A stretch of DNA of 63,268 nt, counting the filler, from Conidiobolus incongruus B7586 (lineage: Eukaryota), in NCBI GenBank assembly GCA_000697335.1. It is 6 parts of 6 records of this genome, joined end to end, with 100 filler letters (N's around TTAATTAATTAA, not from the genome) between each part and the next. Parts side by side here need not be neighbours in the genome. Positions count along the whole stretch, not along the records: positions 40,977 to 46,972 come from JNEM01006396.1; 5 more parts are not named here. One strand, 5' to 3'. Within the stretch, counting starts at the first letter, position 1. Every line of letters begins with the position of its first letter. Shown here piece after piece: positions 26,568 through 63,268 of this stretch. Made by a program: the position numbers and the translations under genes. Below the pieces are notes generated by a model. It did not search any database, was not told the DNA's origin, and was given only the letters and a program-made list of their open reading frames with translations.

Positions 26568-27619
26568 AACAATATTAATTTAGTTGAATCCAATTATTAG
26601 CATTTTCAATTGTTATCAACGAAGCCATCTAACCTTATTTATACTTATCTTTATCAACTCAAAGCAGATAAAAGGAATTTATATCAAACTAAATTAATTC
26701 CAATTCTAGTATTTCCCTCAATCATGGATTTATCCTTTAGTATCAATTTAAAACAATTTAACTTATACTCTATCCCTTATATATCAGGCAATGATTTATT
26801 TTAATAATTAATTTATAATAATTCAAAACACAGATTTGTTCCAAGTTTAGTAGGTGATTAAATACCATTTCTGTAACTAAAGCATCCATATTTTTGGCAA
26901 TTGATGCATTTGACATCATTATAGAATTTCTATTCTAAATAATTGGCTTAAAATGGAAAAGGTATTGAAAATATTAAATTCCAAAAATTATAATTTAAGT
27001 TTGGATTAACCTAGTTACCTATTAAATATGTTAATAAAGTAAACATTTCAATAAAGTTGTGAATTTAAAATTATTCCTATGAGGATATTTAATATAAAAT
27101 ATAAAATATTATATATTATTAAAATTCATTATTGGTTAAATGACATTATAAAAAAATAAATTAAATTAAAAAAGTGTTAAATTATCAATTTAAATAAGTT
27201 AATTAATATTTAAATTTGTAATTTATTATTATTAATACATAAATAAATTGATAATTAAATGATATATACTTAATGATTAAAATAATATTAAAGTATTAAG
27301 TACCCAATTTATATATTTATACTCTCTAATATGAAAAAAATACCAATTTATCAAAATTTTATTATATTCATTTGTTTTAAAAAACTATTGTATTCATTTT
27401 GAAAAATAAAAATCAAATTTTTATATTTTAACTATAAATGATAATTTGATTAAAAATGGCAAATTTTTTAAATTTTGATTTTTCAAACATATTGTTAGTT
27501 TTGATAAATATATTTTATATAAGATTTATAAGTGATTTAATGATTTCAATTAGATATTTATATATATTCTAATTTATAATTATTTTTTGTTATTAAAATA
27601 TTTTTATTTAAAAATTATA

Positions 27620-28085
27620 TTATATTCTAGCTAGATAATTATTATTAAAGTTTTTTATTTTATTATTATTAAAGCTCAATCATAACCCATTTTAAATTAT
27701 TTAAACTTTATAAATAATCTTAAAAATAATGCTTTATCTTAAACTACTATTTATTGTTAAATTTGGTATTTTAAAATTAAAAATGATATTATTGAAAATT
27801 TAATATAATTTTAAAAACTAGTGATTATTATTATTATTATTTCTTTTATTAATAAAATAAAAACTTTATTAAAAAGAACCTATTATTTTAATTAACTAAT
27901 TTTTGAATTATTTAATATTAACTATATAAATATATTGTTTATATTCAAATTTAATTTTAATTTTATTAATAAAAAAATAACTCTTTTATTATTTAACTAA
28001 AGTTTAATAAAACTAAAATTACTATAATTAAATGCAAAAGATTTTTATATTGAATTATTAAAATAAAAAAAATATTAAATATTTA
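27620..28085 (+). mobile_element. Hypermutated mariner transposase relic (5' part, truncated by gap)
   Basis: IFKNNALS*TTIYC*IWYFKIKNDIIENLI*F*KL reverts to about IFGDNALSQTTIYRWIRYFKTGNDTIEDL.RSGRP; K*LFYYLTKV** reverts to about KWLPHHLTEAQQ (WVPHEL motif). Start approximate. Confidence 0.65.
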
Positions 28086-41099: not shown

Positions 41100-44000
41100 A
41101 TTTTAAATTTTATTTATAACTTATTTTATTTAAATCTAAAATTATAAATTATAATGATATTAAAAAAAATACTTGTATATAGCTTTAATAATGATAGTAT
41201 CTTAATTATTAAGTAAATTTAAAACTTTAGTTTTTAAGTGTTTGTTACTCTTTAAATAACTTATATTAAATAACTTTTGATTAAGAAAAACATAATTTAA
41301 AAAGCTTAAATCTAATAAACTAATTACTTTACTATAATTAATATATTAAACCACCTTTTTAGTGTTTTTAAAGATAAACTAACTATTTATAATAATTCTA
41401 AAGGCTTATATAAGCTTGAAAACTATTTTAAAAATATAAAGAATTATCTTAATTTAATTTTTAATGAATATTTAAACAATATCTTTAAATTAGCTATTTC
41501 TTTTTTAGAAAAATCTACTTATACTTGGTAGTTAACTTATTACAAGCTTAATCCTAAAGAGTTTTTAGGGAGATAATTTATTATAAGAATATAAACCTTT
41601 AAATAGTTAGAAAAAACCCTTAAAGAAAAATATTACTTAAAAAATTAAGTTTGATTAACAAGAGAAAAGCTTTCTTAACTTAAATAAATAACTTCTAAAA
41701 GATAATTAATTAAGAAATTTAATAAGATATGTTTAAATATATTAAATATCATTGAAGAAGAATAAATCTATAAGTTATTATAATGCTTTAATCTTAAAGT
41801 AAAACTCTAGTTAATTAATAGGGAATATTTTAATAATATGTTTTTTTTAATATTTATAATATAACAATTATGATTAATGATATTTTTTACTTTATAACTA
41901 AATCTTTTTATCTTAAGAATTAATCTTTTAAAATTATTTTAATCTACTTAAATTTCAAATGACAAATGTTTTTGTTTTAAAACTTTATCAAAAAACCTTT
42001 AATAAAGGAGTTAAAGTTTACTTAAGAATAAATAAAAGTTGCTATTATTATTAAAGGACATAAGTTAATTATAGAGTTAATAAATGTTTTCTCAAAAAAC
42101 AATATCTGTTTAATTCTCAATAATTTTAATTTATTAACTATAAATCAAACTTAAATAATATCAATATCATCTTAAAATCACCTCTTTTATAATTAGTTAG
42201 CAAATTCTAATCTAATCTACAAAAGTTCTAATAGCCTAATGATTCTATAAATTAAACTATATATATTAGAGAGATCTAACTAATTAAACTACTAGAAACT
42301 AAAAATATTCTAGTAACTAATTTACTTAATAATTCTCTATCTTTAATTATCACATTATTATTTATTTTAACTAAATATTTTATAGATATACCTGTTAATG
42401 TTTTAATTAACTTTAATTGTTTTAGTTATATTATTTTCTCTTTTATTATTATAAAATTATCTTTATCTATTTAAAAAAAATAGCTTAATAATCAAATATA
42501 TTAATAATTCAATAGAACAAGTATTTAACACTATATTTATATACTTATCATTATTTCTTAATTACTCTCAATATATTAAATTCTTAGTTGATAATATTAG
42601 TTACAATTTTATACTAAATTAAAATTAATTTGAATACTATAAACTTTTATCTATAAATATTACTCTAGAAGGTTACAAATCTATTCTATTTATATTTTCA
42701 AAGAAATTAATAAAATTAATCTCAAAAAATTTGCACTATTTTATTATATAATTACCAAATATTTTACCTAATACTAACTTTATAATTTTTTCAAATAATT
42801 TTATTATTATAAGCAAAAACCAATATAAAAAACTAATTAAAAGCTTTCATAATTTATAAAGATATATATTTGTTTATTATTTATCTATTAGTATTTTATT
42901 TATTAATTTTAATGAAGTTATAACTAATAACTATTTTTTATATAATATAATAAGTTAATTTACTAATGTTCTTAAACTTATAAGTAGATTAACTCTTAAA
43001 TATAATATTAAACACAAAATTAAATTTCTCATAAATACACAACTATATTTAAAGTTTATTTATCATTTATCTCTTGAATAATATTAAACTTTAAAAGAAG
43101 AAATCTAAAAATTACTTGAAAATAAAAATATTAAACCTTCTTCCTTACTATAAAAATCTCTTATCCTCTTTATATAAAAGGCTGATAGTGGTTAAAAACT
43201 ATATATTGATAATTATGTTTTAAACTTTAAAACTATCAAGGATAAAACTTTATTATTAAACCTTTATGATATTAAAGATAAACTACTTAAATCTACTATA
43301 TTTATTAAAATAAATGTTAAAAATAATGATTATAATATTAAAGTTAAAGAAAATTCTATTCCTTTAATTATTTTCAATACTCTATTAAGCTATTATAAAT
43401 TTAATATTATAAACTTTAAAATATATAATGTTTTTGTAACTTTTATATAACTTATCAATTCTCTTTTCAACTTTATCTTTAATAACTTTATTATTATTTA
43501 CTTTGATAATATCTTAATTTATTTAAAAATTAAACAAAAATATATCTAATATATAAAAAAGTTTTACAAATTATTCAAGAATATAAATTACTTTTAAAGC
43601 TATTAAAATATATTATTAATGCTTCTTCTATCTTTTTCTATAGTTATATTTTTTTTAAAGAGTTAATATTGATTTAACTAAACTTAATAATATAAAAGCT
43701 TTTACTATACTTATAAATAAAAATCAACTTATGTTTATACTTAGATTATTAAATTACTTTAAAGATTTCATTGATTCTTTTATTGAATTTATAACTTTTC
43801 TAATTAATCACTTGAGAAAAAACTTTTTTTTAAATAAATCCTACTATATACTTTTTATATAAATGCTTTAATTTTTTATATTACTAATACTCTTTATTTA
43901 TTTTTGATCTTAAATTACCTATTATTATTTTTATTAACTTTAATTTTTTTATAATTAGTAGATAGTTAATCTAATTTAGATTTAATTTATATTTTACCCA

Positions 44001-46150
44001 TTAACTATAAAATAAAATAATAAATAAAAAAGAATAGGTTAAGTTTAACCCTATAAATATCACCTTAAAGCTTATAAAATTCTAATTAAGAAAAATAAAG
44101 CTAGCTAAATTAAAATACCTAGTTTATAAATAAAAACTCTTTACTTTAGTAGATATAATCAAAAATCATTTATATTTCTTATCTTGCAATTTTTTTTAAT
44201 ATTTACAAATTATAGATTACTTATCTATTTAAATACTCAAAAACATTTATTAAAAAAATAAGTTAAATAAATTAAAACTATCCAAGCTTATTTTTTCTTT
44301 ATCTAATATCTTTTAGGTTAATAAAATTATATTGTAGATACTTTGTTAAAAAATCTTACATACCTATTTTTTATTCTAATTATAAAAACCTAGTAGATAT
44401 TAACATAATAGTTATTAATAAAGGAAATAAAAAAATTATTAAATTATTTTAAAAAACACTACTAAATAATAATTTCTTTATTTTCATTAAAAAAAACTCT
44501 TGAAACTATTAGAAAACTAATTAAAATATATTAAAAGATTTAAAATCATTGATAACTTACTATATTATAATAATTGTTTATATGTTTCTAATATTCTTAA
44601 GATTTAACAATTAATATTTAATGAGTATTATAACTTATTTATTAAAGGACATTAAAACTAGTTAAAGATTGCTGAAAGAATTAAAATAAAATATTACTAG
44701 CTTTCCTTAGTTAAATTAATTTAGAAATAAATTAATACTTATAATATATATTAAAAAATTAAATATAATACCTAACTAAAATATAGTAAACTTATTCCCT
44801 TACAAATCCCTAATAAAATTTAATAACAAATCTAACTTGATTTCATAGAAATTTTTAAATCAACAACTAGTTATAATAACTTATTAATTGTAATTGATTT
44901 ATTCTTTAAGTATATTTATTTTTTCTTTGTTTCAAAACTTTTATAATCAAAGATATTACAAAACTATTATTCTCTAATATTTTTACCTATTATAAAATTT
45001 CATAAACTATTATATCTAATAAAGATATATAATTCAACTCTTAATTTTTAAAGTTACTATCTTTTTCCTTTAAGATTAATTTAGCTATATCTATTACTAA
45101 TCATCAATAAACTAATAAACTTGTTAAAAAAAACTATTAAAACCTTAAAATAAATGATTAAAGTTTATATTAACATTAAATAGTTAAATTAAGATACCTA
45201 TATCTATTAATTTTGATATTTATTTAATACTTTTATTAACAAATCAACAAGTTTTAGCCTTTATTTTATTAATTATAATAAATATCTTAACTTAATAATT
45301 ACTTTAAAACTTTAAACCAACTTATCTATAGATGTTGTTGAATTTTAATCTAATATTAAATATATCAATTTCCTTTTTTAAATTTAACTTAGAAGAGAAT
45401 TAAAGGATTATAAAACAACAATATTTAAAATTATTTAGGAATCCTCTTAAATATAAAATTAATATATTTATATATTTAAAATAATCTACCTTTAAACTTA
45501 CCTTATTTAAATCTAACTTAAATCTAAAATACTTGCTATTATATTATAATCCTTATAAAATTTAATCTATTAATTTAAATTTTAAAAATATTACTTTAGA
45601 ATTACCCTTAATTTTAAAAATTAACTTTACCTTTCATATATCTAAAATCAAACCTTATTTTGAAGATTTTAATATTTTTCTTAATTAATTAAAAACTTTA
45701 AAACTAGATCTAATTATTAATTAAGATAAAAAAATACTATGTTGATTATATAATTAAATTTAAATCTATTAGCAATAAGCTTTATTTCTATATAAAATAA
45801 ATAGGTTATTTTATTAAAGAAGCTATATAAGAACCCCTATAAAATATTAAGAATATCTTAACTTATTATACCTACTTATAAAAATCTAAGGAGTGTATTT
45901 CTTTTAAAAAACTTATTAAAAGAGTGTTAAAAGATTAGTTCTTTAAATTCTTATATATACTTTCATATAATTCAATTAACTATAAATTATATGATTAATT
46001 TATACTTTTATAACTAAATTAATTATATACATTATATTGAATTATTTAATAAACTGAGTTTTTTTATCCTTTCAATACTTATTATTTCTTATCTTTTTAA
46101 CTATTTTTAAGTTTGAGACTATATCCTATTAATATTATAATATATTAACA
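41100..46150 (+). mobile_element. Hypermutated Ty3/gypsy chromovirus LTR retrotransposon (gag-PR-RT-RNaseH-IN-chromodomain plus 3' LTR)
   Basis: Degraded motifs in order: gag (LAISFLEKSTYTW*), CCHC-like knuckle near 42040, protease LINFNC (from LIDSGC) near 42400, RT IKPSSLL*KSLILFI*KADSG*KLYID (from IRPSSSPWGSP.LF..KADGGWRLCID) and YFDNILIY near 43500, integrase LIPLQIP...**QI*LDFI near 44800, chromodomain YIK*IGY....I*EPL near 45800. 5' boundary approximate. Confidence 0.88.
45925..46150 (+). repeat. 3' LTR of the gypsy element (TGTTAA...TTAACA)
   Basis: Follows a purine tract (AAAAGAG) after the chromodomain; 6-bp inverted termini TGTTAA/TTAACA. Confidence 0.6.
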
Positions 46151-46324
46151 CTACCTAATATAAATCTTAATATATTAGTAACTCACCCCAGTTTAAAGCT
46201 TAATTAAACTCTGTTTATATTTGCATACTATAGTTATATTATAATATTATAATTTATGTCATACTACTCTTATATTAAGTTTTCCTCTATACTATATTAG
46301 TACTTACTACTATACTTATATTTT

Positions 46325-46972
46325 TAAATAATTGAAAAAAGCTTTTAAAAAAATATTACTTAAAAGATTAAGTTTAATTAACAAGAGAAAAGCTTTCTTA
46401 ACAAAAATAAAAAACTTTTATAAGGTAATTAATAAAGAAATTTTATGAGATATACTTAAATATATTAAATATCATTAAAGAAGAATAAATTTAGATGTTA
46501 TTATAATGTTTTAATATTTAAGTAAGATTTTAATTAATTAATAAAAAATACTTAAATATTTTTTTTCTGATATTTATAATATAATAATTATATATGAGGA
46601 TATTTTTTATTTTATAATTAAATTTTTTTACCTAAAGAATTATTCTTTTAAAATTTATTTTAATCTATTTAGATCTTAAATAATAAATATTTTTATTTTA
46701 AAGTTTTATAAGAAAATATTGAATAAAGAAGTTAAAGTTTATTTAAAAATAAATAAAAACTGTTATTATTATTAAAAAACTTAAGTTAACTATAAAGTTA
46801 ATAAATATTTGTAAAAAAAACAGTATTAATTTAATCTTCAATTATTATAATTCATTAATTACAAATTAAACTGGAATTATATTAATATAACTTTCAAACA
46901 CCTTTTTTATAATTATTTAACAAATTTTAAATTAATCCATAAAATTTTTAATAAATTAATGATTTTTTAAAT
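46325..46972 (+). mobile_element. Second, independently mutated fragment of the same gypsy family (gag region)
   Basis: Colinear with about 41600-42250 (shared ATTAACAAGAGAAAAGCTTTCTTAAC); differences are mostly transitions. Confidence 0.85.
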
Positions 46973-47072
46973 NNNNNNNNNNNNNNNNNNNNNNNNNNNN
47001 NNNNNNNNNNNNNNNNTTAATTAATTAANNNNNNNNNNNNNNNNNNNNNNNNNNNNNNNNNNNNNNNNNNNN
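46973..47072. other. Scaffold gap with spacer
   Basis: N run with TTAATTAATTAA. Confidence 0.95.
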
Positions 47073-47478
47073 GAATATTTCATTGTTCCCAGTTTTAAGG
47101 CAAGTTTCCTGTACTATCAGTGCAACTGATTCCTTCCAAAGTAATAGGGATTCTACCATCATCAGAATTATCAATGAGGCGGAATGAGTTCAAATTCATG
47201 TTGAAATTACCAGGTTCATAGTCAAAACATTAATCAACTACATGAGCAACTGTAGATTGTTGAGTTTTAGTATTGGTGACTCTAATACACATGCCACATA
47301 CAGCTAAGTTCCCAAAGACAGATGGGCCAATGGAAGTTCAAAGAGGATATATGCCAACCGGATAGGTGCATTTACCCTTTCCTTTATCAGGGTTGAGGTC
47401 ATAAGAAGTATTACCAATTCCAGTTCTCAAGTTATTGAAACCCAAGAAAGATAAATCAAATAATTGAATTGAGTGCAT
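47073..47478 (-). pseudogene. Expansin-like pseudogene, 5' part (3' end in gap)
   Basis: Reverse complement is identical to 50346-50742, including in-frame stops; ATG at 47476-47478. Confidence 0.8.
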
Positions 47479-48348
47479 AATAAATAGTAATTAATATAAT
47501 TTAATTTTTTTCATTATATTGAATGAATATTAAATAACATTATACTACTTACAATAGCTAATATATTTTACTAACAAATTAATTATATTCTGAATATAAT
47601 AACAAATATTTAAGTTAACAATTAATGATATTTAGTCTAAAAATAGATTCGGTTAATTTAGACAAATTAAGGAATGCGATTGTGTTTGGATTGATTTTTT
47701 CCGGATTTATGTGAATTGCTTAATTGAGTTTAAATAATATAAAGTTGATTAGTGTGTTGTCAAATGACTATGAAATCCATATTGGTATTGATATTATTTT
47801 AATGTTTTATAATTGATAATTTTTTAATATGAATAATTCTTTAGAATATTCTATAATTCCTAATAGAATTAAATTAAATTTTTTTATAATTATATTCTTT
47901 TTTTTTCAATTAATTATCTTGAAAAATTTTATAAAATTTAATTAAATATGAAATTCTATTAGATATATTTTAAGATTTTTTTTATATTTCAATAAAAAAA
48001 ATGATTTCATAACTTATATTATTAATAACATTTTAATTCATTTATAATTATTGAAACTTGATTTATTAAAAATTTTAATAGTGTATAGTGTGAAAAGTTC
48101 TATTAATAACTATGGTAAAATAAATGGTTTTTGGGTATGAAAGATATAGATTAATTCATTAAATTTTAATATATTATTAGTATTAAGAGTGACATCAAAT
48201 TAATCTTATTAATTTAAAGTTATTTGATATTGTATTGATTTCAATATTGGGCGGCTGATAATATGGAAATAAATTGGTATATAAGGAGTCATGATAGCTT
48301 ATGAGTCACTACTAACAATTGTATAATATTTAATTCATTTTAACAATA

Positions 48349-48987
48349 ATGTACAAATTAATATTATCACTTTTAGCTGTGTCTGTCCAATGTGCCATTT
48401 CTGGATCTGGAAATGCTAGCTACGACACTAACCCTGATGGATATGGTAAATGTAGTTTCCCTGCTGGTTACTCTACCTACTTCACTGGTGTTGGACCCTC
48501 AGTCTTCGCTGGATCTGCTTCCTGTGGCGCTTGCATTGAAATCACCAATCCTAAGACTAAAAAGACTGTTATCGCAAGAGTTGTTGACCAATGTGCTGGA
48601 TGTGGGGCCGGTGACTTGAACTTGAACAAACCTGCTTTTGAACAAATTGGAGATCCTTTTGATGGTCGTATTCCTGTCACCTGGAAGGAGGTAAGATGCC
48701 CTAATACCCCCGGAAACTTGGTCTACCAATGGTGGGCTGGTAGCAACAGATGGTGGGCTGCCGTCCAGATTAGGAATCATGCTCAAGCTATTACCAAATT
48801 GGAAGTATTTGATGGAACTCAGTATAAGCAGATGAGCCGTCGTGATGATAATTATTTCGTCGTTTCTGGAGTTGGTGCTGGCCCTCTTAAGATCAGATTG
48901 ACTGGTACTGATGGTAAAACTGTCGAAGATGCTGCCGTCCCTATTCTTGAAAACGGAGGTCAAGTTACTAGTGGAGGTCAGTTGTAA
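48349..48987 (+). CDS. Secreted expansin-like protein (EXLX: DPBB/GH45-like D1 plus CBM63 D2), intronless
   Basis: Signal peptide; CGACIEI, VVDQCAGC, AF.QIGDP..GRIPVTW; D2 GSNRWWAAVQIRNH closely resembles Bacillus EXLX1 GSSRWWAAIQVRNH. TATATAAG about 70 bp upstream. Confidence 0.92.
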   Translation: MYKLILSLLAVSVQCAISGSGNASYDTNPDGYGKCSFPAGYSTYFTGVGPSVFAGSASCGACIEITNPKTKKTVIARVVDQCAGCGAGDLNLNKPAFEQIGDPFDGRIPVTWKEVRCPNTPGNLVYQWWAGSNRWWAAVQIRNHAQAITKLEVFDGTQYKQMSRRDDNYFVVSGVGAGPLKIRLTGTDGKTVEDAAVPILENGGQVTSGGQL

Positions 48988-50336
48988 GTTCTGATTAGTA
49001 TTGTTAATAAATTATTGTGATGAGGATTAGTACTATAAGGTAATAGTCTCTTTGATTCGACCAATTATGATATATAAACTATATGCAATTATATTAGTGT
49101 TAATTACACTTCTGAACATTATTAACCGATTCATCAAAGTATAAAAAGTAATATAATACTATATAGGTTATCAGATTAGGGCTTTTCAATAAAAATTAAA
49201 TATCAATTAAAAAATCATCATATGACTATTTTTAAAGGGATATGAACCAAATCAATTTTAAAATGGTGCTGAAATATATCGATTTGAACGATATTTTACT
49301 AAAATATTTTAGGCTTATATTAAATCAGATATAAATAACTATTATTTATATAAAAACTTTCTAATGTTAAACATTTTTCAATTTTTATATATAATTAAAG
49401 GCTATTTCAAAACTTTATTAGATATGAATATAATATAACTATTTATAATTGAATCATATTTACTAGTATTATTCATTTGATATAAATAAATCATAACAAA
49501 TAATTAAATATTTGAACAATATATAATCTGAAAATAAATTAATTATTCCCAATATTAATTTATACTTAATTCTGATTATTACAAAAATGACTTATAAATT
49601 GAAAAACATTAATTATAATTTTATAGTATATCACAATTTTAAAGAAATGTTATTATTTTAGCAATTTCATAAACAAGATAATGGATGAGTAGTTATATTT
49701 AAAAATAGCTAGCTGATTTAATCAAAAATACAAAATTTTTTCGTAAAGGTTGATATTCAGAACCTCTAAATTTTATTTTTAGATAAGTAAAAAATAAATG
49801 TTACTAGTTTATACATCACTAAATAACCTTAAAGTTTAAAGAAATACTATGATTGGATAAATTTCTGCTTAACCTGAAAGTTATAATTGAAGTATGTATT
49901 AAATTGATTCAATATATATGAGATAACTGAAAAAAAAATAAATACTCTCTTTGACTCAAATTTTCATCACTTCAAACAAATATTAAATGGATAATGAATA
50001 TTATTTCAAAAAAAAATTTATAACAATTAATTAGTTAATGGATTAAGAATTAAAATCAATGTTCTAATATAGGACCACTTATTTTAAGATTAAAGTTTTT
50101 TAAACATGATTAATTTTTATTCAAAATATACCTGTTATATGAATTAACCAAAATTCTATATTTAGCTGAAAATTTTAACATTATCTGTAATTTAGATTAG
50201 GTATTGGGAATTAAAAATTAAAGATTTGACTGTTTTTGGTGAGTGATGAATTTGAAAAAGTATATAGTTTAGAGAAGACTGTTGGTCTAGTAATAACAAC
50301 TTAATTTTTAAACAGTCAATAATATCTTTTCAAATA

Positions 50337-50981
50337 ATGCGTTCTATTCAATTATTTGATTTATCTTTCTTGGGTTTCAATAACTTGAGAACTGGAATTG
50401 GTAATACTTCTTATGACCTCAACCCTGATAAAGGAAAGGGTAAATGCACCTATCCGGTTGGCATATATCCTCTTTGAACTTCCATTGGCCCATCTGTCTT
50501 TGGGAACTTAGCTGTATGTGGCATGTGTATTAGAGTCACCAATACTAAAACTCAACAATCTACAGTTGCTCATGTAGTTGATTAATGTTTTGACTATGAA
50601 CCTGGTAATTTCAACATGAATTTGAACTCATTCCGCCTCATTGATAATTCTGATGATGGTAGAATCCCTATTACTTTGGAAGGAATCAGTTGCACTGATA
50701 GTACAGGAAACTTGCCTTAAAACTGGGAACAATGAAATATTCAATGACATATAGTTGTCCATACCAGAAACAATCCTCAACCTATCAAGTATATAGAAAT
50801 CTTTGCTAACAATCAATGGGTTACTCAATCTCACAGAAGTGACAATCAATTCATTGTCAGAGGAGTTGGTAATGGTCCTTATGGAACTTGTGTTACAGGT
50901 GAAGATGGCAAATCTGTTGAAGATAACGCTGTCCCAACTTTGGAACAAGAAAGTATTGTTGTAAGCAGTGGAAATATCTAA
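50337..50981 (+). pseudogene. Full-length expansin-like pseudogene
   Basis: Colinear with the 56691 copy over 215 codons; in-frame stops at about 50476, 50583, 50718, 50733 and 50745. Confidence 0.9.
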
Positions 50982-52541
50982 TTGTGATCTATTTTTATGA
51001 ATATATCATATACATTATATTTGTATATCACATTTAATCAAGAAATTTCTATTGAATATACCTCTCTATTCCTGTCAATAATATTTATTCGAATTATATA
51101 TAATTTTTATAAATCAAGTATATTTTCTATTTTATATTTTAAGCTATAACTGGAAAACCTGAATGAAATTCATATTTTTTCCATATCCATAATCAGTTAT
51201 ATTTTTAATTTAAATAAAAAACTAACTCAATTTTTATTATCTTTATTAATTTTATTTTGAAGATCCAATTAAATTCCTTGAGGTAATAATATATGTTACA
51301 GGCAAGTATTTTGATAATAAAGCCACTCCTATGATGTCATCAGATGTTGTCATCACTCTTGATTCACTTATATACTACAAAGCCTTATTAGCCATCTATA
51401 GTCTTTATCTCAGTATTGATGAACTTTAACCATTTAGAAAGTGGGTTATAATCCATTTACCCTGGATATATAACTTTAATTAAAAACACTACAATGAAAA
51501 ACCTTTTTCCATCATAAATCCATCAATTACTTAAATATTTGAGTTATTACTTACCAATTGGTGATTAAGTCAAGAACTAAGATAATATTAAATCTTTAAA
51601 ACCTTTGGTTAATAACATTGTGGATAATTGTGATTTGCAAACAATCCAAATTATAATTTCAATATTTTTGCCTTTAGATATATGTAATCAGTAGAATATC
51701 TAATTTTTTACCAAATTTTTAATATTGAGTTATAATTTATCATCAATATATATTGATTTGTTATTTATCAAAATATTATAAGATTTTTAATTTTATAAAT
51801 AAAATTCAGCTTTATTATGCTATATTTATGTTAATTATAATATTCTTATAAAATATATTATAATTATTCTGGATTTTAGGTTGATTTAATTAGATTTTTT
51901 AATTTAATATTAAATTATCATTGAATTTGATTTATAAAGTATTATTTAATTTAAAAAATAAAATCATATTTAATATTTTATTGCTTAAACTTAAGATTAA
52001 AAAATTGATATTAAAAGAACTGATAAAATAATATAGATATTATAAATAATATAATTTAAACTTTAAAATGACTAATATACTTCAAATTTATAATAAAATT
52101 TTTATATTATTTTTCAAAAAAACATTACTATAAAAATTAAACAAAAGCAAAATTTTAAAATTAAAATTAAATATAATTTTTAATAAATAGTATAAATTAT
52201 TAAATAAATGAATAATATAATGCTAATATTATCTTTAATAATTAAAAACCTTTTATTATAATTTTGGTAAACTTTTAACATTTAAAAACTATTGATTATT
52301 ATAATTAAATTTAATATTTTAAATATATATTAAATTTGTATTTTATGATTTTTTTATATAAATAAAATTTCTGGTAATTTAAAATAAATTTAAAATTATA
52401 AATTATAATCTAGAGAGTATATATAATATATTAGTATCTTTTGATTAGTTATATAAAAAGTCTTATATAATTTTACCCATATATAATTTATAATTATTAT
52501 TTACAAAATTAAATAATTTATAATTATTATTTACAAAATTA

Positions 52542-52641
52542 NNNNNNNNNNNNNNNNNNNNNNNNNNNNNNNNNNNNNNNNNNNNTTAATTAATTAANNN
52601 NNNNNNNNNNNNNNNNNNNNNNNNNNNNNNNNNNNNNNNNN
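52542..52641. other. Scaffold gap with spacer
   Basis: N run with TTAATTAATTAA. Confidence 0.95.
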
Positions 52642-53159
52642 CCTATCCCCTTTACACCTCAGTTGGTCCTTCTGTCTTTGGCGACTCAACCGTATGTGGT
52701 ATGTGTATCAAAGTAACTAATACTAAGACCCAACAATCTACTGTGGCTCATGTGGTTGATCAATGTTTGAACTGTGGACCTGGAGATCTTAACATGAATT
52801 TGAATTCATTCCGTCTTATTGGTAATCCTGATGATGGTAGAGTTCCTATCACATGGGAAGAAGTTCGTTGTACCGATACTACCGGAAACTTGTCTTATAA
52901 TTGGGAACAAGGAAGTAATCAATGGTATGCAGTCGTCCAAATCAGAAATAATCCTCAACCTATCAAAAGCTTTGAATTTTTAGTGAACAATCAATGGGTT
53001 GCTCAAACTCGTAGAAGTGACAATCACTTCATCGTACAAGGAGTTGGCAATGGTCCTTATAGAATTCGTGTCACTGGCGAAGATGGTAAATCTATTGAAG
53101 ACAACTCTGTCCCAATTTTGGAACAGGGAGGTGCTGTTGTAAGCAGTGGAAATATTTAA
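52642..53159 (+). CDS. Expansin-like protein, 5' end hidden in gap
   Basis: Open frame YPLYTSVGPSVFGDSTVCGMCIKV...GSNQWYAVVQIRN...VVSSGNI*. Confidence 0.85.
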
Positions 53160-53379
53160 TATATGCATATTCAAATGTATTTTTAAAAATTCAATTATCA
53201 GTTATGAAAGAAATCACAGATTTTTTAATTTCTAATTTTCCAAATATATTGCTAGTTTTATAAAATAAAATATATGCAAAATAAATCAGAGAATGATATT
53301 TTGAAACTATATATATATTCATTCAATATTACTTTTTAATAAAATATTTTTATTGAAAAATATATTATTGAATTTAATC

Positions 53380-53880
53380 ATGTTTAAACTAAAAAGTGAT
53401 CATAAAAAGTTTATTATTACTATTAAGACTCAATCACAAACTTTCTAATATCATTTTTAAATTGTAAACAAAATATTAATTAAAGCATTATTTAAAACTA
53501 CCATTTATTGCTAGATTTATTACTTAAAAGCTAAAAATGATTTTATCTAAAATTCATCAAAATCTAAAAGATTAATTTTTACCAATACCCTTTTATTAAA
53601 AAATAAATATTATATTAAAAAAACTTTTTATTTTAGCTAAAAAAATATCAAAATAGCTCTATATTAATAATAAAAGTAAATTTTATATATTAAAATTTAA
53701 ATTTAATTTGATTTATAAAAATATTAAATAAAAATCATTTAACTTATTAAAAGCTTAAAAAATCAAATAATTGTAATTAAATAAAATTTATTAAGATATA
53801 ATTAAAAACAAAGATTTATATATTAAATCATTATTATTGATGAATTTTAAACTTTTTGGTATAATCTTTTATTTAAAGCA
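53380..53880 (+). mobile_element. Hypermutated mariner transposase relic
   Basis: ALFKTTIYC*IYYLKAKNDFI*NSSKSKRL (from ALSKTTIYRWI.YLKAGNDSIQDSPRSGRP), KNIK*KSFNLLKA*K, IIIIDEF* (from IIT.DESW, first catalytic Asp). Nucleotide similarity to 27.7 kb. Boundaries approximate. Confidence 0.65.
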
Positions 53881-56690
53881 AAAACAATTACTAAGTTAAA
53901 ACACTCTTTAATAAGTATAATATTAGTAAAGCCAATATAATATAAAGGAAGACTTAATTTAATATCCATATGATAAGTTAATATATCAGTAAATAAAGTT
54001 TATTTAATTTTTGTAAATAATGGGTCAATATAGATAAATTTAATTTTATATTAGATAATTTCAAAATAATAAAATATTGATAAATATAGTTATAATCTTA
54101 AGAATAATAATAAAAATTAAAAAATATTAAAGAAAAGAAACTCTGATTTTTAGTTAAATTAATATTATTTATATAATTAAATTATATTTTATATAATTAT
54201 AATTATTTTAGGTAAATAAAAAATATACTTACATAAAAGAAAATTCTTGAAAATATATTTAAATGATTTTTTGAAATATCAAATTTTAGTTTTAAATGGA
54301 ACTATATTAAAGTAACAAATGATTACCCAAAATATAATCAAAAGTTATTAATAATAAAAAAGAGTTTTAATATTATATTATATATTATATATTAATATTT
54401 CTATATCATATTTTAAATATTATATTTAATTTTGATTTTAGAATTTTATTATTATTAGAATTAATCAAATGATATTAAAATATAATAAAATTCATTTTGC
54501 AATATCAAATCATAATAATTTATTTTTGATTTTAATTTATTTTATACTTTAGCATATATAATGTTATAAAATGAATTATGATTAATGTTAAAGTATTCAA
54601 ATTAGACGCTAATAGTATATTGTTGGTTTAACTCTTGCTATTATTAGATCTTATTATTATCAATATTCATTATCATTTTTATGCTTTCATATCTCTTATT
54701 GAAAATAATAATTAAAAATTTGAATCTTATTTGAATGTTATTTCTAATTCTTTGATCAGTTTTAAAGCCAATTTACAGGTTTATTTAATGATTTCATTTC
54801 AACTGTTTTTTAATTAATATTATATCTTTTCAGATGATGTCTTAATTTGGATTTTTTTAACTTGACAAATAATTTGATCGATATTTTATTTTGATCTGAT
54901 CGTCACGATAATATATTACAACTAAAGTCTAGAATTGATGTATCAATGTATCAAAAGTTACATATATTAGCAAAATATAAGTTGGTACTAGAATAATCTA
55001 TTTATATATACTGATGTTTTAATATTCTTCAACTTAATATATTCAAAATTTTGATACAATTAAGATATCTATCAAATATATTATTGAAATATCAAGAAAT
55101 TTGAAGTTTTAATTATTAATAGCTGAACTTATTTCAGTATATATAAATTATATTTTATAACTATAGAAAATAAGAGTCCAGGATTAATGAATATTAAATT
55201 AATATTTTTTTTATTTATTTTTATATATTAATGACTTAATTTGACATACAATTATAATTCATTATTATTAGTAGTAGACTTTTACATCATATTCACCCAA
55301 CTCTAACATTAATTATAATATTTATAATAATTTAATAATACTGTTTATTCGTAATTTTATTTGAGAATACATGTAATAAAACTAAAGCATATGATAATTT
55401 TCTAATATTGAATTATTAATAATTTCATAATTTTGTACCATCCAGTTCTAGTATTAATTAAAAATATATTAAAATTAAAAGATATTTTATCAGTTGATAT
55501 TTAAAAATTTATTATAGAATTAAACTCAATTATACATTCAAATAAATATATTCTTATAGCAGTATTGTTTTGTATATTATTCAATAGATCGTTATATAAA
55601 TTCTGAATCAACAATTATTGAATAATGATAATACAATAGTGTCCGAGCATCATTGATAAATCATTTAATTGATTTTATTATCAATAAAATTAGAATAGTA
55701 TTATTCAAGTACTATAGTTCTAGTTTGATAATTATTAATCTTTCTAGAAAGTTATTCATTATTATAGGTTTTTAGAATGTATGTTTAGTCGCCTCATTTA
55801 CAAAAAATGATATTTGCTATTTCATTATTACATCTACCAATTTAATTACTAACCAATTTCTATTGATATATTGCTGAATTGAGCTTAATACTATATTTAT
55901 CTTGGATTGTATACAGTATCCGTGACTGATGATTCTTTTGTATGTTTATATTTTTGCTTCAAATTAATTTCCTGTTATAAAATGAATAATAATGTTCTAG
56001 AAAGATTAGTACATATTTTTCAGATATTAAATAATAATGAAATCATGAATAATTTTGCATTTTAATGCAGATATTTTTAAATAATAAGGTCATTTGATGT
56101 GATATTAATTACAGCATTTAACCACCTTTTCAGTTCATTAAAGGAAGCTATTTGGAACCTATTAAATGTTTTTGTATGTGCTGATTAAATAAATTCAATA
56201 ATATACAAAATCGTACAACAATCAAGGATTGATTCAAGTTATGATATATCTCTTATAAGCTTAATACTAATTAATAAAAGTGTTGCTAAATAATTTAAAT
56301 ATTAATATGAAAAGATATAGTCTCTTATTACTATTCATGGTGTTAAACAGTATTTATCAGTAAGAATTATATGAATTGATTAAATGATATATTATACTGT
56401 ATGATGAATGAAAAATATGTAATAAATATTCAATATTGAAACAATTATTTTAATCAAGTACTTTTCCATATTTTTTTTTCAAATTCATCAAAATCTATTT
56501 TTAACAATTTAAATTTAGACATAATCACCCAAATTTGTGGTCAAGTACTGTGAAATTTCAATTAGAGGATTGAATGATTTCATTTTTTATTGTGAGAAAT
56601 GAATTTGAAAAGATATAAAACCTAATCTAGTATGTTTAATTTCGATATATCATAGTTTAATATTTTAATAATTTATTAATATCTAATATA

Positions 56691-57380
56691 ATGATGCGCA
56701 CTATCCTATTATTTGCTTTATATATCTTGGGTGTAAACAGCTTAAGAAGTGGGACTGGTAATGCTTCCTATGATATCAATCCTGATGAAGGCAAGGGTAA
56801 ATGTACTTACCCAGCTGGTACCTATCCCCTTTACACCTCAGTTGGTCCTTCTGTCTTTGGCGACTCAACCGTATGTGGTATGTGTATCAAAGTAACTAAT
56901 ACTAAGACCCAACAATCTACTGTGGTTCATGTGGTTGATCAATGCTTGAACTGTGGACCTGGAGATCTTAACATGAATTTGAATTCATTCCGTCTTATTG
57001 GTAATCCTGATGATGGTAGAGTTCCTATCACATGGGAAGAAGTTCGTTGTACCGATACTACCGGAAACTTGTCTTATAATTGGGAACAAGGAAGTAATCA
57101 ATGGTATGCAGTCGTCCAAATCAGAAATAATCCTCAACCCATCAAGAGCTTTGAAATCTTCGTCAATAACCAATGGGTTGCTCAAACTCGTAGAAGTGAT
57201 AACCAATTCATTGTCAGAGGAGTTGGTAGCAGATCTTATAGAACTAGGACCACTGATGAAGATGGTAAATCTGTTAAGGATAGCTCTGTTCTCATTTTGG
57301 AACAAGGTGCAAATGTAGTTTACAGCCCAAATATCAAGTTGATTTCATTAAATTTGATACACATATATTTTGTGTATTGA
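56691..57380 (+). CDS. Secreted expansin-like protein with 15-aa C-terminal extension from a lost stop codon
   Basis: Signal peptide plus D1 and D2 motifs. Paralogs stop after ...GNI; here ATC AAG continues. Confidence 0.85.
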   Translation: MMRTILLFALYILGVNSLRSGTGNASYDINPDEGKGKCTYPAGTYPLYTSVGPSVFGDSTVCGMCIKVTNTKTQQSTVVHVVDQCLNCGPGDLNMNLNSFRLIGNPDDGRVPITWEEVRCTDTTGNLSYNWEQGSNQWYAVVQIRNNPQPIKSFEIFVNNQWVAQTRRSDNQFIVRGVGSRSYRTRTTDEDGKSVKDSSVLILEQGANVVYSPNIKLISLNLIHIYFVY

Positions 57381-58309
57381 AGATATCGATTTACTGCAAA
57401 GAATATATTAATATTTACTAGAGTATTTTATGTAAATCCCAGGAATTAATTTTATTCTTTTTATAATTTTTATTTTAAATGGAGAACAGGTTAAGAATTT
57501 GTATCTTTTTTCATATCCAAACCAAGAAACTTTTTAATTAAAACTAATAAATAAATAAATACTAAATACTTTTAATCTACTTTAATATCATATTAAGCAT
57601 CTAATTCAGTTTCTTGAAATGATAGAAAATTTATCTATTATTTATTAAAATAAAGAGCTTTTAAAATTTTTAAATATCACATTTATCAGGGCCATCTAAC
57701 ATAATAATGCACTTTTGCAATTCCCTATCAAATAAATTAGCATTTTTGTGGTTTAGACTTCAATAGGCCAATATTTGCTATTTAATATTAAAACAATAGT
57801 AAAATTGAGTCAAATTTTGATTAAAACTTAACTAATGAAAAGATAAAATAGTTCTGAATATTACATCATTTGAATGTGAAAAAATTCAAAAATACAATAA
57901 AAATCGTAATAAAAAGATATTATAGAAATAATTACATCCAATTCAAATATAAAAATTCTAATATAAAATAATCAATGTACTATTAGCTGATAACATAGAT
58001 TTTACTTCTTATCTTAAAATATAATATTATCGTCAAGTTATCACAAATATACAATGAATATATGTCCAAAATATAATTCTGGAAAAGTGAAAACTATATA
58101 GTTAATATTAGTGTTATCAAATTTAAAATCATTTGTACTATAATTAAAATTTGATTATCATATGATAATATTATAAATGAAAAGGAAATAAGATTTAATA
58201 TTTGGATAGCTTTGACAACAAAGCTAAAATTGAAATTAAATAATCATAATATTTATTGAATATTAGATTACAGATATTATAATAATTGGGCAATACTAAT
58301 AAAATACAT

Positions 58310-58772
58310 TTAGAGTTGGCCACTACTGGAGACATTACCACCATCTGCTAGGACCTTGACAGATTCATCTTGTACAACTTTGCCATCCATACCAGTGATT
58401 CGAATGTTAGCTGGATTAGTTGCTCCATTAATAATCCAAATGTTATTGTTGTTTCTAGAAGCTGGTTTCCATTGTCCATTGACATTGATTTCAATACTCT
58501 TAATAGCTTGAGCTGAGTTTAAGATTTGTAAACCAGCCCACCATTCGTTACTTCCAGCTTGCCAGCGATATTGGAGATTTCCATTAATGTTAGGACATCT
58601 GACTTGCTTCCAAGTGATAGGGACATTTCCTGATGCAGGATCACCAATTAATTGGAAAGCATTGGCATTGATATTAAGATCACTTGCTCCACATCCACTA
58701 CAAATATCAGCTACATTGACAATGACTGATTTGTTGTTATCAGTGTTAGTGACTTCGAGACAAGCTCCACAC
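58310..58772 (-). CDS. Expansin-like protein, 5' end hidden in gap
   Basis: Minus-strand frame CGACLEVTNTDNNKSVIVNVADICSGCGASDLNINANAFQLIGDPASGNVPITWKQVRC...GSNEWWAGLQILN...GGNVSSSGQL*. Confidence 0.88.
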
Positions 58773-58872
58773 NNNNNNNNNNNNNNNNNNNNNNNNNNNN
58801 NNNNNNNNNNNNNNNNTTAATTAATTAANNNNNNNNNNNNNNNNNNNNNNNNNNNNNNNNNNNNNNNNNNNN
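58773..58872. other. Scaffold gap with spacer
   Basis: N run with TTAATTAATTAA. Confidence 0.95.
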
Positions 58873-60238
58873 TAATAAAAATATTTAAAAATCTTTATTA
58901 ATATTTGATTTTTATAAATATTTAATCAATTATACAGATTTTTTGAGTTTTAAAAATAATAACATCATTTGTATATATTTTAAGATTATATATATTAAAT
59001 ATATTGTTATTTAATATTAATTTAAAATATGATATATATATATATATTTACAAGGTGATTATATATTATAAATTTGAATAATTCATTTTATAGTAATATT
59101 GAATAAATAAAAATTTTTATATATTATATAATATTATAATATGCATATTTAATTTCTAAATAAAAAATTTATATTATATAATTCTTATTGAATATTTAAC
59201 AAAAATTGCTCTCTATTATTGCTTCTATCTGATAATAAATTCCATAAATATAACTTGTTTTTAAAATATAAATTTACTTGTATAATGATTTTTAAGAATA
59301 TAATGTGTGAATAAATTATTATTTCAAAACTTGGTCCGAAAAATAAATTTCCTAATCTAGTAAAAAATATATTTTAGGTTGCCAATTTATATAAAAAAAT
59401 TGTACATTATTTTGAAAAATCAAAGTTGATACCTTAGTCTTGCATTTAATTGAGAATTCCAAAGTATTAGAAACTTTTGTTACAATTTGATATTTTATTA
59501 AATTTGGTAATTATTTTGTTAAATTATTCAATAATCTTAAAATGGTAAAAATTCCAAATTTCGTGATCAGTTGAATAGCCCACAAAACTTATTGAATGAG
59601 TAGTTATTGGGTATTATAAATAATATTAAGTACTAAGAGAGTTCTTTTTTCATACTTTAATAATAATTAATGGAATATTGTATTAATGACTTATTTGAAT
59701 TATGTCTTAGTTTAAAAAATCTTTTAAAAAGTAGTTCACCAAATTTTTCATCATCTTGTTAATCTAGTTTATACAAAATCTAATATTATTTACTCATTAT
59801 TCCTGAAAAATAATATTGAAATAATTCATCGATTGATTCTTATTTATATATAATGGTTTTATATATTATAACATTATAATACTAAATATCTATAGAGTAT
59901 GAAAAATTTTCATTTTACCAATCATATATGATTCGGAGTAATTTAATCAAAATGAATGGGGTTTAAAAAGATTATTAATCAATTTTCATGATATATAACT
60001 GTATCAAGCAAAGTTGAAAAATGGAATTTTTGATTAATATTTATTATATTATACAATTTAAATTCCTTATCGTACCAACATATTACACTATTCAACATTA
60101 CTTATTCCTTGATATTCAAATAATACTCAATACAAGAATTCAACAGTATTATATGTACAATGTAATTATAACGGTTCTATTTAAAAACCATTGAATAATA
60201 AATAATTAATATTGAACTGAATTTACTGAGTTAACATA

Positions 60239-61094
60239 TTAAGAATTGATATTGATTTTTAAAAAGAATATTTTGAAGAAAAGTACCTTTTTCAGAACTA
60301 AGTTAATCTCAAGAATAGTATTGCTTATATCAATTAAATCGTACTTAAAGACAGTTCTTAATATACTATCATTATTTACTATGATATTAATTATAAGTTT
60401 TGGGAAATTTAGAAATATTGATATATCAATATATTCATAAAACTCTATATTATGGGTAGAATTTTTATCCTTAAATTCAATCAATTAGGTTTTGCTTTAA
60501 AGCATAACTTTATCAAAGATATAAAAGAATAATAAATTTTTTATCATATCTTAGATATAATTGGATTAAAGGATATAGCGATATAGAATGTGATAGAGAA
60601 TCTGAAATTTCAATATCCTATCAACGACTAATTTAAATTTCAAATTTTCGGCTCTCAAAGAAACATACCAGTTTAATCTCAACAAATTATTATCAAGATT
60701 ATCTAATTCAAAAATAAACCAAAATTTCTGTTACAATAAAAGAAGTATGATACGCTGCTCCATTTGTAAGGAAGGGTTACCAAGATCTATATTGGCAATT
60801 ATTTTAACTTTAATTAAATAAATTAACTAAACCTTACAAGTGCTGGATCCAATAATGAATGGATAGCCAATTTTTCTTCACTTTCCTATTAGTTTATTTA
60901 AATGCTTCTGGAATAAATACGTCAGGATCTGCTGGTATATCAAGGTTGTGATGATTAACCCTGAGATAGCAAGTAATAGATATCCTCTCTAGAATTTTAA
61001 TGGCGTTTGATAGTATCAAGTCTTCCGCTGAAACAAAATGAATTTTCTTAACAGTTGTTATGTTTCTGATCAATTCTTCGAAAGCCATATTCAA
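60239..61094 (-). pseudogene. Possible degraded multi-exon gene of unknown function
   Basis: Coding-like minus-strand segments with a GTAAGG...ATAG intron (about 60788-60836) but in-frame TAA codons; no family recognised. Confidence 0.3.
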
Positions 61095-61706
61095 TTAACA
61101 CACTAATATCAATTAATTTATCATTCGCATTTTGAGTGCAGTTAAAAATTATTCATTTCTTTCTCGATATTTTGTTAATTCACAAATTTCCTTTGATTAT
61201 AGTATTTGATTAACGCATTCAAGATATTTTGCCAAATAACAAAATTCAAAGGTTATTGTGCTGTTCAGATTACTTTGACCAATTATTATATACTTTTGAA
61301 ATTATCTTATATATTTTTAATCTTTAAATTTAAATTAATTGGCCATTATAAATTAAAATCTTTTATAAGATATTATTTAAATGAAATTTCAATTTATAAT
61401 TCATAATTTCATAATATTTATACCTATATCATATTCTCATTGATTTATTAAAGTTATTAATTTAATTCTTACCTAATTTCAGTACTATTCAATAGTTAAT
61501 GCTTAATTTGTAAATAAGCTAAAATATATAGCATATGGTAATTATCATCTAAACTAAAATTTACCATATTTAACCTAAAATTGAAATTATTTTACTTCAA
61601 TTATAATATTAGTAAAATAATGTATTAATATAATCAAGTTATTTAATAATATCAGCTTAAATTTTACTAAGTTAAGTTTATTATTAATACTATTCTATTA
61701 TTAATA

Positions 61707-63268
61707 CACTAACCTGCAAAAGTGAGTTATAAAATCAAAAATATATATATTTTAATTAATAACTAAAATAGTTATATATATTAAATTACTTGAAACTATA
61801 ATATATAATTAAGATATATTATTTGATAATAAATAAATATATTTAGATATATTTAATAAACTATTAGTGAAAATATTAACCTTTAATATTTAATTAAGAT
61901 AAGTTATAAATTTACAAGTTTTTGAGATAAAAGGATATATTTAATAATATATAACCATATCTTTTTTCTCTCTTTGTTATTATTTTATATAATATTTTAC
62001 AGATATATTAAATTTTTTTATTAGTATTATTATACTTAAATCCCTCTTTAAGAAGATTTACTTGTATATTAATTAACTTTATAAAAAAGATAAATCAACT
62101 TATAATATTACTAGAATTACTAGTGTTAATTAATCTACTATAGTTAAAACTATTAAGAATAATAATAAAAACACATTTAAACTTAAATTTAAATGTATTA
62201 AAATTATAGATAAATATAATAAAAGTATATTTATAAGTTAATTAATATAGATAAGTGTGGTATTATTATAAAAATATAGCAGGAATTATAAAATTATACA
62301 AAAATATTAATTAGCACTAATATTATTATATGTGTTTTATACTAGCATAGATACTATTTATACTTTAAGAAAAAACACCCCTAATTAAAAAAATCCCACT
62401 ATAAAATTAAGCAAAAGTTTAAATGTCATTACTAATATTAAACTAAAACTAATTAAAGTAAAGCTATTTAGTTTAATAAAACAAAAATATATTTTAATAA
62501 ATTTAATAAAAAAGCTAAATATTTTAAAAAAGATATAAAACTACTTTATAACTATTATATTAATTTTACTTAAAAATACAATAATAGGTTAATTATTATT
62601 TAAGGATATATATTATTTTTAAATATAAGATATCTTTATAAAATTAATAAGGGAATTAATATTAAGATATATTAAAGTATTCTAAATAATAAATTGAAAA
62701 AAAATTATTAAATAATATAAGTTAAACAAATTTAATATTATTTTTTAATAAGATAATACTTTTTATTATATTATAGCTTTTATTACCAAATAGCTTAAAA
62801 ATAACAAAATAATAGTTATAAAATAGCTTCTTTAATTTTTTAACTTTAAGCTAATTAAATACTTTTAAGGTTAGTTAAAAAAAGTTATTAAAGCTTTCCC
62901 CCTAATAAAAAATTTAAATTAGTTTTAAAAATATATTTAAGAAATATAAAATAAGATTAACCCTTCTTAATATAAAAAGTTAATTAATTTTATACCTTAT
63001 AAACTTAAAGAAATTAGAAAAGTTAAAGGTAGATATACTAAGTTTTAATTTTTTTTATCATTAAAAACTTACAAATTTATAATTTATCTTAGGTAAAATT
63101 TAAAGGTTTATATTTTAACCAATTAATAACTAAATATCATTATTTAATAATATATATAATTAATAAATATAACAGATTTTAATTATTTAATTTAAGTTTA
63201 TTTTATTAAACATTAATTAAGTTATTAGTAAAAATATAAGTGTTTTTGATTTTATAACTTATTTTTAT
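61707..63268 (+). mobile_element. Tc1-family (DD34E) DNA transposon, hypermutated, with about 225-bp TIRs; right end runs off the window
   Basis: TA then CACTAACCTGCAAAAGTGAG left end; 61716-61932 matches the reverse complement of 63051-63268. Transposase relic 62032-63048 with *FNK (WSDE), KYNNRLIII*GY (KYGGGS.IIWGC), F**DNTFYY (FQQDNAPCH), *LL*FFNFKLIK (WPPQSPDF.PIE; 34 residues between D and E) and KGRYTKF*. Confidence 0.88.

Follow-up and report, generated by a model that had tools for sequence, protein, structure and literature searches.

Two-strand C-to-T mutation of dead chromovirus and Tc1 transposons, probably in a Conidiobolus genome

How did the retroelement that fills one contig of Conidiobolus incongruus B7586 come to lose every CpG, and in whose genome did this happen? 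The window, that is, the whole stretch of 63,268 nucleotides that was analysed (assembly GCA_000697335.1), consists of six contigs with an identical joiner, N44-TTAATTAATTAA-N44, between neighbours, and adjacency across this fixed linker is no evidence of linkage. The retroelement lies on one linker-bounded contig, 40977-46972 (5996 bp), and a Tc1/mariner DNA transposon closes the window (Table 1). The gene-bearing contigs are read, from their genes, as those of one Conidiobolus-like zoopagomycete, here called the host. The contig is a dead chromovirus, and its family and the Tc1 family were mutated C-to-T on both strands; we consider it likely that this took place in the genome of a Conidiobolus fungus, and likely that the agent was a cytosine-methyltransferase-linked transposon defence resembling repeat-induced point mutation (RIP).

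Mutation spectra of the two transposon families

The first-pass annotation of this DNA had reported next to no CpG in about 6 kb of retroelement, and the count bears this out, with 0 CpG in 5996 bp against 29.4 expected. Observed/expected ratios in the contig are 0.49 for CpA, 0.71 for TpG, 1.56 for CpT and 1.04 for TpA, and the remaining five contigs have 0.39-0.75 for CpG, 0.91-1.13 for CpA and 0.85-1.02 for TpA; the abundance of TpA that had also been claimed amounts to no clear enrichment given the composition. Counted on both strands, the base after a surviving cytosine is A in 24%, T in 65% and G in 0% of cases in the retroelement contig, and A in 49%, T in 37% and G in 5% in equally AT-rich host non-coding DNA. 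Since host DNA of equal AT content keeps its CpG and CpA, AT richness alone does not explain the signature of the contig.

Family-level spectra were computed in X1 and X3, two of the four runs (X1-X4) of one sample that contains the retroelement contig; X5 and X7, runs of other samples, cover neither the element nor the Tc1 flank and are uninformative on absence. At places passing a 10% threshold, which favours recurrent changes and is to that extent a caveat to our reading, the 26,385 X1 contigs that align to the retroelement give 1119 transition against 149 transversion places, with all four classes of transition represented (A>G 270, T>C 431, C>T 241, G>A 177). In X1 the counts for the Tc1 family are 289 against 7 places, or 41 transitions per transversion (A>G 105, T>C 90, C>T 47, G>A 47), and 290 against 8 in X3. 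Both families thus have the excess of C:G to T:A change among copies that is looked for in RIP, and they agree with the earlier proposal that one process acts on class I and class II elements alike.

The Tc1 copy in the window (1565 bp) has at most 7 transversion places, but at 195 places it has lost a C or G that is still present in other copies, which suggests that mutation was fast relative to a neutral clock. Among the 40 rows listed out of 314, the C/G losses fall mostly at CpT (19 of 25), as is to be expected when no copy has any CpG or much CpA left. In the mutated elements, survival follows the order CpG (none) < CpA < CpT. With respect to the CpA context preferred by RIP, CpA is halved, CpG is gone and CpT is mutated too, and saturation hides the true rates.

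The strands were compared in a frameshift-tolerant alignment to intact relatives, in which T or A of the window was allowed to represent a former C or G. Over pol the score is 1119 if both changes are permitted, and drops to 259 if G>A alone, or to 393 if C>T alone, is permitted; the sense strand needs both kinds of change, which excludes editing of cDNA. A transversion model, run as a control, scores 595 against about 280 for shuffled sequence, and the transition model 1119 against about 55. In the gag and protease (PR) region the transversion control equals the transition model in score, and no claim about the spectrum therefore rests on gag/PR. The two changes, whose joint presence on one strand had been set as a check, occur together in the retroelement family, the Tc1 family and the pol alignment, and with the Tc1 family they give the two-strand change and independence from reverse transcription that are further marks of RIP.

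The signature switches sharply at the edge of the Tc1 relic, from a CpA:CpT count of 240:208 outside to 46:131 inside (p 3e-10). At its start, near 61705, 29 and 35 contigs with differing flanks meet the element, and the 2.8 kb flank corresponds to one exact record at a depth of 23.5. The mutation affects both strands, is directed at C, does not depend on element class, stays within repeats and is fast by comparison with transversions.

The elements and their decay

The raw reading frames of the retroelement contig hold 196-232 stops each, and Pfam gave no match in nine raw frames and one weak integrase zinc-finger match in seven narrower frames; the reverse transcriptase (RT) frame read with X returned 13,963 protein matches at E <= 0.001. 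Intact relatives such as P0175 carry gag, PR, RT, RNase H (RH), integrase (IN), SH3 and chromodomain, and in the frameshift-tolerant alignment RT through chromodomain of the window element (element A) is collinear over 42932-45875 with about 11 frameshifts, PR, RT, RH and IN standing in the order, integrase last, of Ty3/Gypsy chromoviruses. The chromodomain lies at the integrase C-terminus on a continuous path for both references tried, with moderate support. Tested singly, RT, RH and IN reach 82-293, where shuffled sequence peaks at 50-58; three of four PR references fall at the same place (best 80 against 58), and gag exceeds its shuffled maximum with one of two references. The gag-PR-RT-RH-IN-chromodomain order claimed at first reading therefore holds, with weaker support for gag, PR and the chromodomain than for RT, RH and IN.

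Among 140 codon positions that are conserved, 51 are intact, 53 carry a change that C>T or G>A would explain, and 36 differ in another way, the last class including misplacement near frameshifts as well as true divergence. None of 11 Gly and none of 5 His codons survive. The damage described earlier at catalytic motifs is present (INFNC at 42406, YFDN at 43499, W to stop in the chromodomain), except that the relatives have YLDD where YFDD had been given as the starting point. The element had also been called complete. Family homology begins near 41184, the 5' region holds no match to a long terminal repeat (LTR; score 22 against a shuffled maximum of 28), and paired LTRs with a target-site duplication, which mark a complete LTR element, were not found; with one LTR, about 11 frameshifts and a contig that starts with a Tc1 fragment, element A is not complete. 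By its predicted domains the contig is an ordinary dead Ty3/Gypsy chromovirus in an unusual place. Summed contig depth, which is not a copy number, is several-fold greater over the LTR at 45925-46321 than over the coding part, a pattern that abundant solo LTRs would produce.

The second gag, that of element B, starts mid-gene 2 bases past the LTR end, a position that points to nesting of element A in the gag of element B; a chimeric join is the alternative. Element A would have inserted there and later lost its 5' end. Between 46323-46972 and 41598-42252, 535 of 656 columns are identical, and the other columns show transitions in 74 cases, transversions in 40 (A/T in 25) and gaps in 7, with C/G kept by one copy at 52 sites and by the other at 22. 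Each copy does retain different C/G, as had been noted, and differences mainly at C/T and G/A sites are there only in the sense of 74 to 40. Unmutated expansin-like host paralogs show 106 transitions to 62 transversions, a ratio no different (p 0.80). The alignment proposed as a test of transition saturation thus fails to show it, and the strong C:G to T:A excess of RIP is absent from the gag pair alone. By their alignment the two gags are best described as diverged subfamilies and are little proof by themselves.

A DDE transposase, terminal inverted repeats and a TA target identify the Tc1/mariner relic. It matches the C-terminal catalytic half of the Sleeping Beauty catalytic domain (PDB 5cr4, E 4.7e-6); its raw frames have many stops and no Pfam or NCBIfam match, and a plasmid search with it was empty. 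The relic is cut about 12 bp short of its right end, and the TA is visible in the window only at the left. Beside it, a 64-codon open reading frame (60897-61088, minus strand) with an early stop is possibly a pseudogene; the atlas points weakly to a cytochrome P450 (0.90, with few features in common).

Table 1. Features of the window and the evidence for them
Feature	Position	Strand	Evidence or remark
Third CpG-free repeat, older	1-630, 27413-28080, 53209-53828		368-442 against a maximum of 233 in 40 controls
Linkers	28086-28185, 40877-40976, 46973-47072, 52542-52641, 58773-58872		Identical N44-TTAATTAATTAA-N44 joiner
HAS1 helicase, host marker	38212-39888	+	On the contig next to the retroelement contig
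Retroelement contig, whole	40977-46972		GC 14.5%, 0 CpG
Tc1-family internal fragment at contig start	40978-41070	-	Against 62129-62221: 76/93 identical, 13 transitions, 4 transversions
gag relic, capsid region, element A	41409-41903	+	97 against shuffled maximum 76 (P0232); P0175 not significant
Aspartic protease relic	42361-42640	+	1 frameshift; active-site column INFN(C) at 42406
Reverse transcriptase relic	43172-43650	+	YFDN at 43499; relatives have YLDD
RNase H relic	43906-44291	+	Firm from about 44029
Integrase relic	44599-45661	+	H2C2 44599-44769, core 44830-45288, SH3 45461-45661
Chromodomain relic	45723-45875	+	Aromatic W columns are stops; tested singly, 2 of 5 references above shuffled maximum
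Putative 3' LTR	45925-46321	+	TGT start, peak summed depth; end from solo-LTR match and start of gag B
Second gag, element B, diverged subfamily	46323-46972	+	Starts mid-gag right after LTR; ends at contig end
Degenerate solo-LTR relative of 46015-46319	53911-54184	-	151.5 against a maximum of 56 in 72 control windows
Tc1 flank, single-copy, unmutated	58873-61703		GC 19.8%, 18 CpG, normal CpA
Tc1/mariner relic	61705-63268	+	0 CpG; terminal inverted repeats, each about 220 bp; left edge sharp, at a TA

Origin of the DNA and competing explanations

The unusual part of the case is the host, which the first-pass annotation had not identified. The best named match of HAS1 is from Conidiobolus coronatus (Zoopagomycota), at 98% over 80% of the query; another protein ranks above it, at 91% over the full length, and the next named fungi reach at most 86%. 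Codon usage correlates at 0.66-0.86 among HAS1, a formate-tetrahydrofolate ligase (contig 1) and two expansin-like genes (contigs 4 and 5), the latter reaching 0.70-0.74 with HAS1. The mutated repeats are linked to this DNA in several ways. One Tc1 family is common to the contig with the unmutated flank and to the retroelement contig; a degenerate solo-LTR relative sits between expansin-like host genes, its end coinciding with the LTR end; and a third repeat of about 600 bp, without a match between 1-630 and the retroelement contig, occurs at either end of gene-rich contig 1 (its three copies agree at about 70%, have 0 CpG each and differ by transitions and transversions in about equal number). 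The Tc1 relic, the solo-LTR relative and the third repeat all adjoin unmutated AT-rich DNA of host type, which argues against an ascomycete contaminant.

Such a contaminant, a filamentous ascomycete sequenced along with the Conidiobolus, subject to ordinary RIP and contributing its AT-rich contigs to the assembly, would suit the lack of a host gene on the retroelement contig, an element clade not tied to a named fungus, and the amount of contig sequence, which is 81 million letters in X1 and 114 million in X3 but 25-33 million in X5 and X7. The loss of CpG and CpA is likewise the textbook ascomycete RIP pattern. The unmutated Tc1 flank, however, has the GC content of host intergenic DNA and not the roughly 50% of unmutated filamentous-ascomycete DNA; host-type genes share their contigs with the solo-LTR relative and with the third CpG-free repeat; no contig of the six resembles one with ascomycete genes; and among the best 120 matches, which include no close named relative, the single named fungal one is a Penicillium protein at 35%. 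Contamination is on balance quite unlikely. Passive decay, in which dense all-context methylation of transposons is followed by slow spontaneous deamination of 5-methylcytosine (5mC) with no mutator and no homology search, accords with a CpG loss that is total and the strongest of all, with the sparing of host duplicates and with older repeats that still lack CpG at equal transitions and transversions; the accessible text of PMC8016269, in which Zymoseptoria Dim2 promotes mitotic C>T at CpA, points the same way. Such decay sits badly with the Tc1 copy, in which the few transversion places against so many lost C/G, many of them at CpT, imply that mutation ran far ahead of the neutral clock (1.7:1 in host paralogs), and we regard it as unlikely. 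Passive decay and a RIP-like defence differ in rate and in the involvement of an enzyme. APOBEC-like editing of retroelement cDNA, or a general AT mutation pressure, could draw on the AT richness of the whole window, but with C>T and G>A both on the sense strand, a DNA transposon struck harder than the retroelement, and CpG and CpA retained in equally AT-rich host DNA, it is very improbable.

Several observations weigh against a RIP-like defence acting in Conidiobolus. All copy-level evidence comes from one sample (X1-X4), possibly the source of the window itself, and scans with a degenerate Tc1-end motif (0 matches in metagenome contigs) and with HAS1 (80 loci, top identity 79%, none Conidiobolus-like) found no independent genome with these elements. 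A young mutated element and a Conidiobolus gene named by homology do not occur together on any window contig, and the intact retroelements nearest to element A are not tied to a named fungus. The exact flank record enters the Tc1 relic by 22 letters only; the flank has no named homologue, and its open reading frame had none among 20 candidates. The transition ratio of the gag pair is ordinary. Host duplicates 90-99% alike are unmutated, and RID/Masc1 homologues were reported, in the accessible text of PMC5751038, only from Pezizomycotina and a few other Dikarya, with one likely bacterial transfer elsewhere.

Both CpG and CpA survive in the expansin-like host duplicates (409 bp at 99% identity, 514 columns at 90%), which are close to the minimum length for RIP, sit where contigs begin, and could be recent copies or products of assembly. 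Any duplication longer than about 400 bp triggers RIP, whatever its content; RIP also needs a RID/Masc1 methyltransferase and takes place after fertilisation and before karyogamy. The spared duplicates mean that transposon-directed targeting by chromatin or RNA interference fits equally well, so that of the earlier view that the process depends on repetition rather than retrotransposition, one half survives: reverse transcription is unnecessary, as the Tc1 family and the two-strand changes indicate, and repetition as such stays a candidate trigger. At least 5 expansin-like (DPBB/Barwin) genes or fragments, 57-99% alike, lie on two contigs in 47073-58772. The top atlas cluster for 56691-57377 consists mostly of bacterial YoaJ-type expansins (0.95) and serves only as a lead. 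The 99% duplicates at contig starts (47073-47481 and 50334-50742; 52642-52941 and 56821-57120), which keep CpG and CpA, may be recent duplicates or assembly overlaps.

Under a RIP-like defence, copies would have inserted intact and then been mutated one by one, fast against the neutral clock. A DNMT1/DIM-2-class enzyme may mark heterochromatic transposon copies, and the modified cytosine would then be deaminated and fixed as T in the order CpG > CpA > CpT. We put forward more tentatively, as possible but short of probable, that Conidiobolus, which lies beyond the range in which RID is known, has its own fast, enzyme-driven repeat hypermutator, one that clears young transposon copies in their thousands of CpG, of CpA and of some CpT, a RIP equivalent either older than Dikarya or independently invented. 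Judged by these signatures the process appears to work like RIP; membership of RIP is not established.

Relation to known systems

A RIP-like process here would extend transposon-killing mutation to a phylum in which it has so far been hinted at by rough indices only, and in a culturable zoopagomycete the origin of RIP and its need for RID or sex would become directly testable. The relics are also a warning, as they escape Pfam and k-mer screens in AT-rich genomes. In the accessible text of PMC12543289, a survey of 1,239 genomes that included C. coronatus NRRL 28638 (6.4% repeats), RIP-like signatures are confined to ascomycetes. The accessible part of PMC11105155 states that RIP is otherwise seen only in Dikarya, gives Zoophthora radicans a composite RIP index in 24.2% of windows, a result its authors call caveated, and has a Neoconidiobolus row with no RIP analysis marked. 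In early-diverging fungi 5mC is almost undetectable according to PMC13297926, whose accessible text does not mention Zoopagomycota. In the accessible literature we found no report of RIP-like mutation in Conidiobolus; the per-species k-mer tables of PMC12543289 may bear on C. coronatus.

Element A resembles Ty3/Gypsy chromoviruses in its gag-PR-RT-RH-IN order, its C-terminal chromodomain and a single frame that spans gag and the start of the protease; it differs in being dead and 5'-truncated, with metagenome proteins (P0175, P0289, P0177) as its nearest intact relatives. Tcn1-like is a tentative label for its clade. The DNA transposon shares with Tc1/mariner elements of the Sleeping Beauty type the catalytic C-terminal half, long terminal inverted repeats and a boundary TA, and departs from them in its many stops and in having no Pfam or NCBIfam match in raw frames.

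As for the mutation itself, Z. radicans belongs to the same subphylum and suggests RIP-like activity outside Dikarya, although the evidence there, in the accessible part of PMC11105155, is a dinucleotide index and here it is substitution spectra between copies. Dim2 of Zymoseptoria tritici, in the accessible text of PMC8016269, likewise produces C>T in transposons, CpA included, with no need for sex, and the link to a methyltransferase would be shared; it is CpA-specific, experimentally shown and from an ascomycete, whereas the present case concerns CpG, CpA and CpT and is drawn from sequence. Alike in form is RIP of Neurospora crassa, dependent on RID and DIM-2, with its dense two-strand C>T and G>A change in class I and class II elements, its copy-specific pattern, its sharp repeat edge and its depletion of CpA. 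The present system differs from it in that the host is apparently a zoopagomycete, CpG loss exceeds CpA loss, CpT is struck too, and linked host duplicates of 400-500 bp are untouched.

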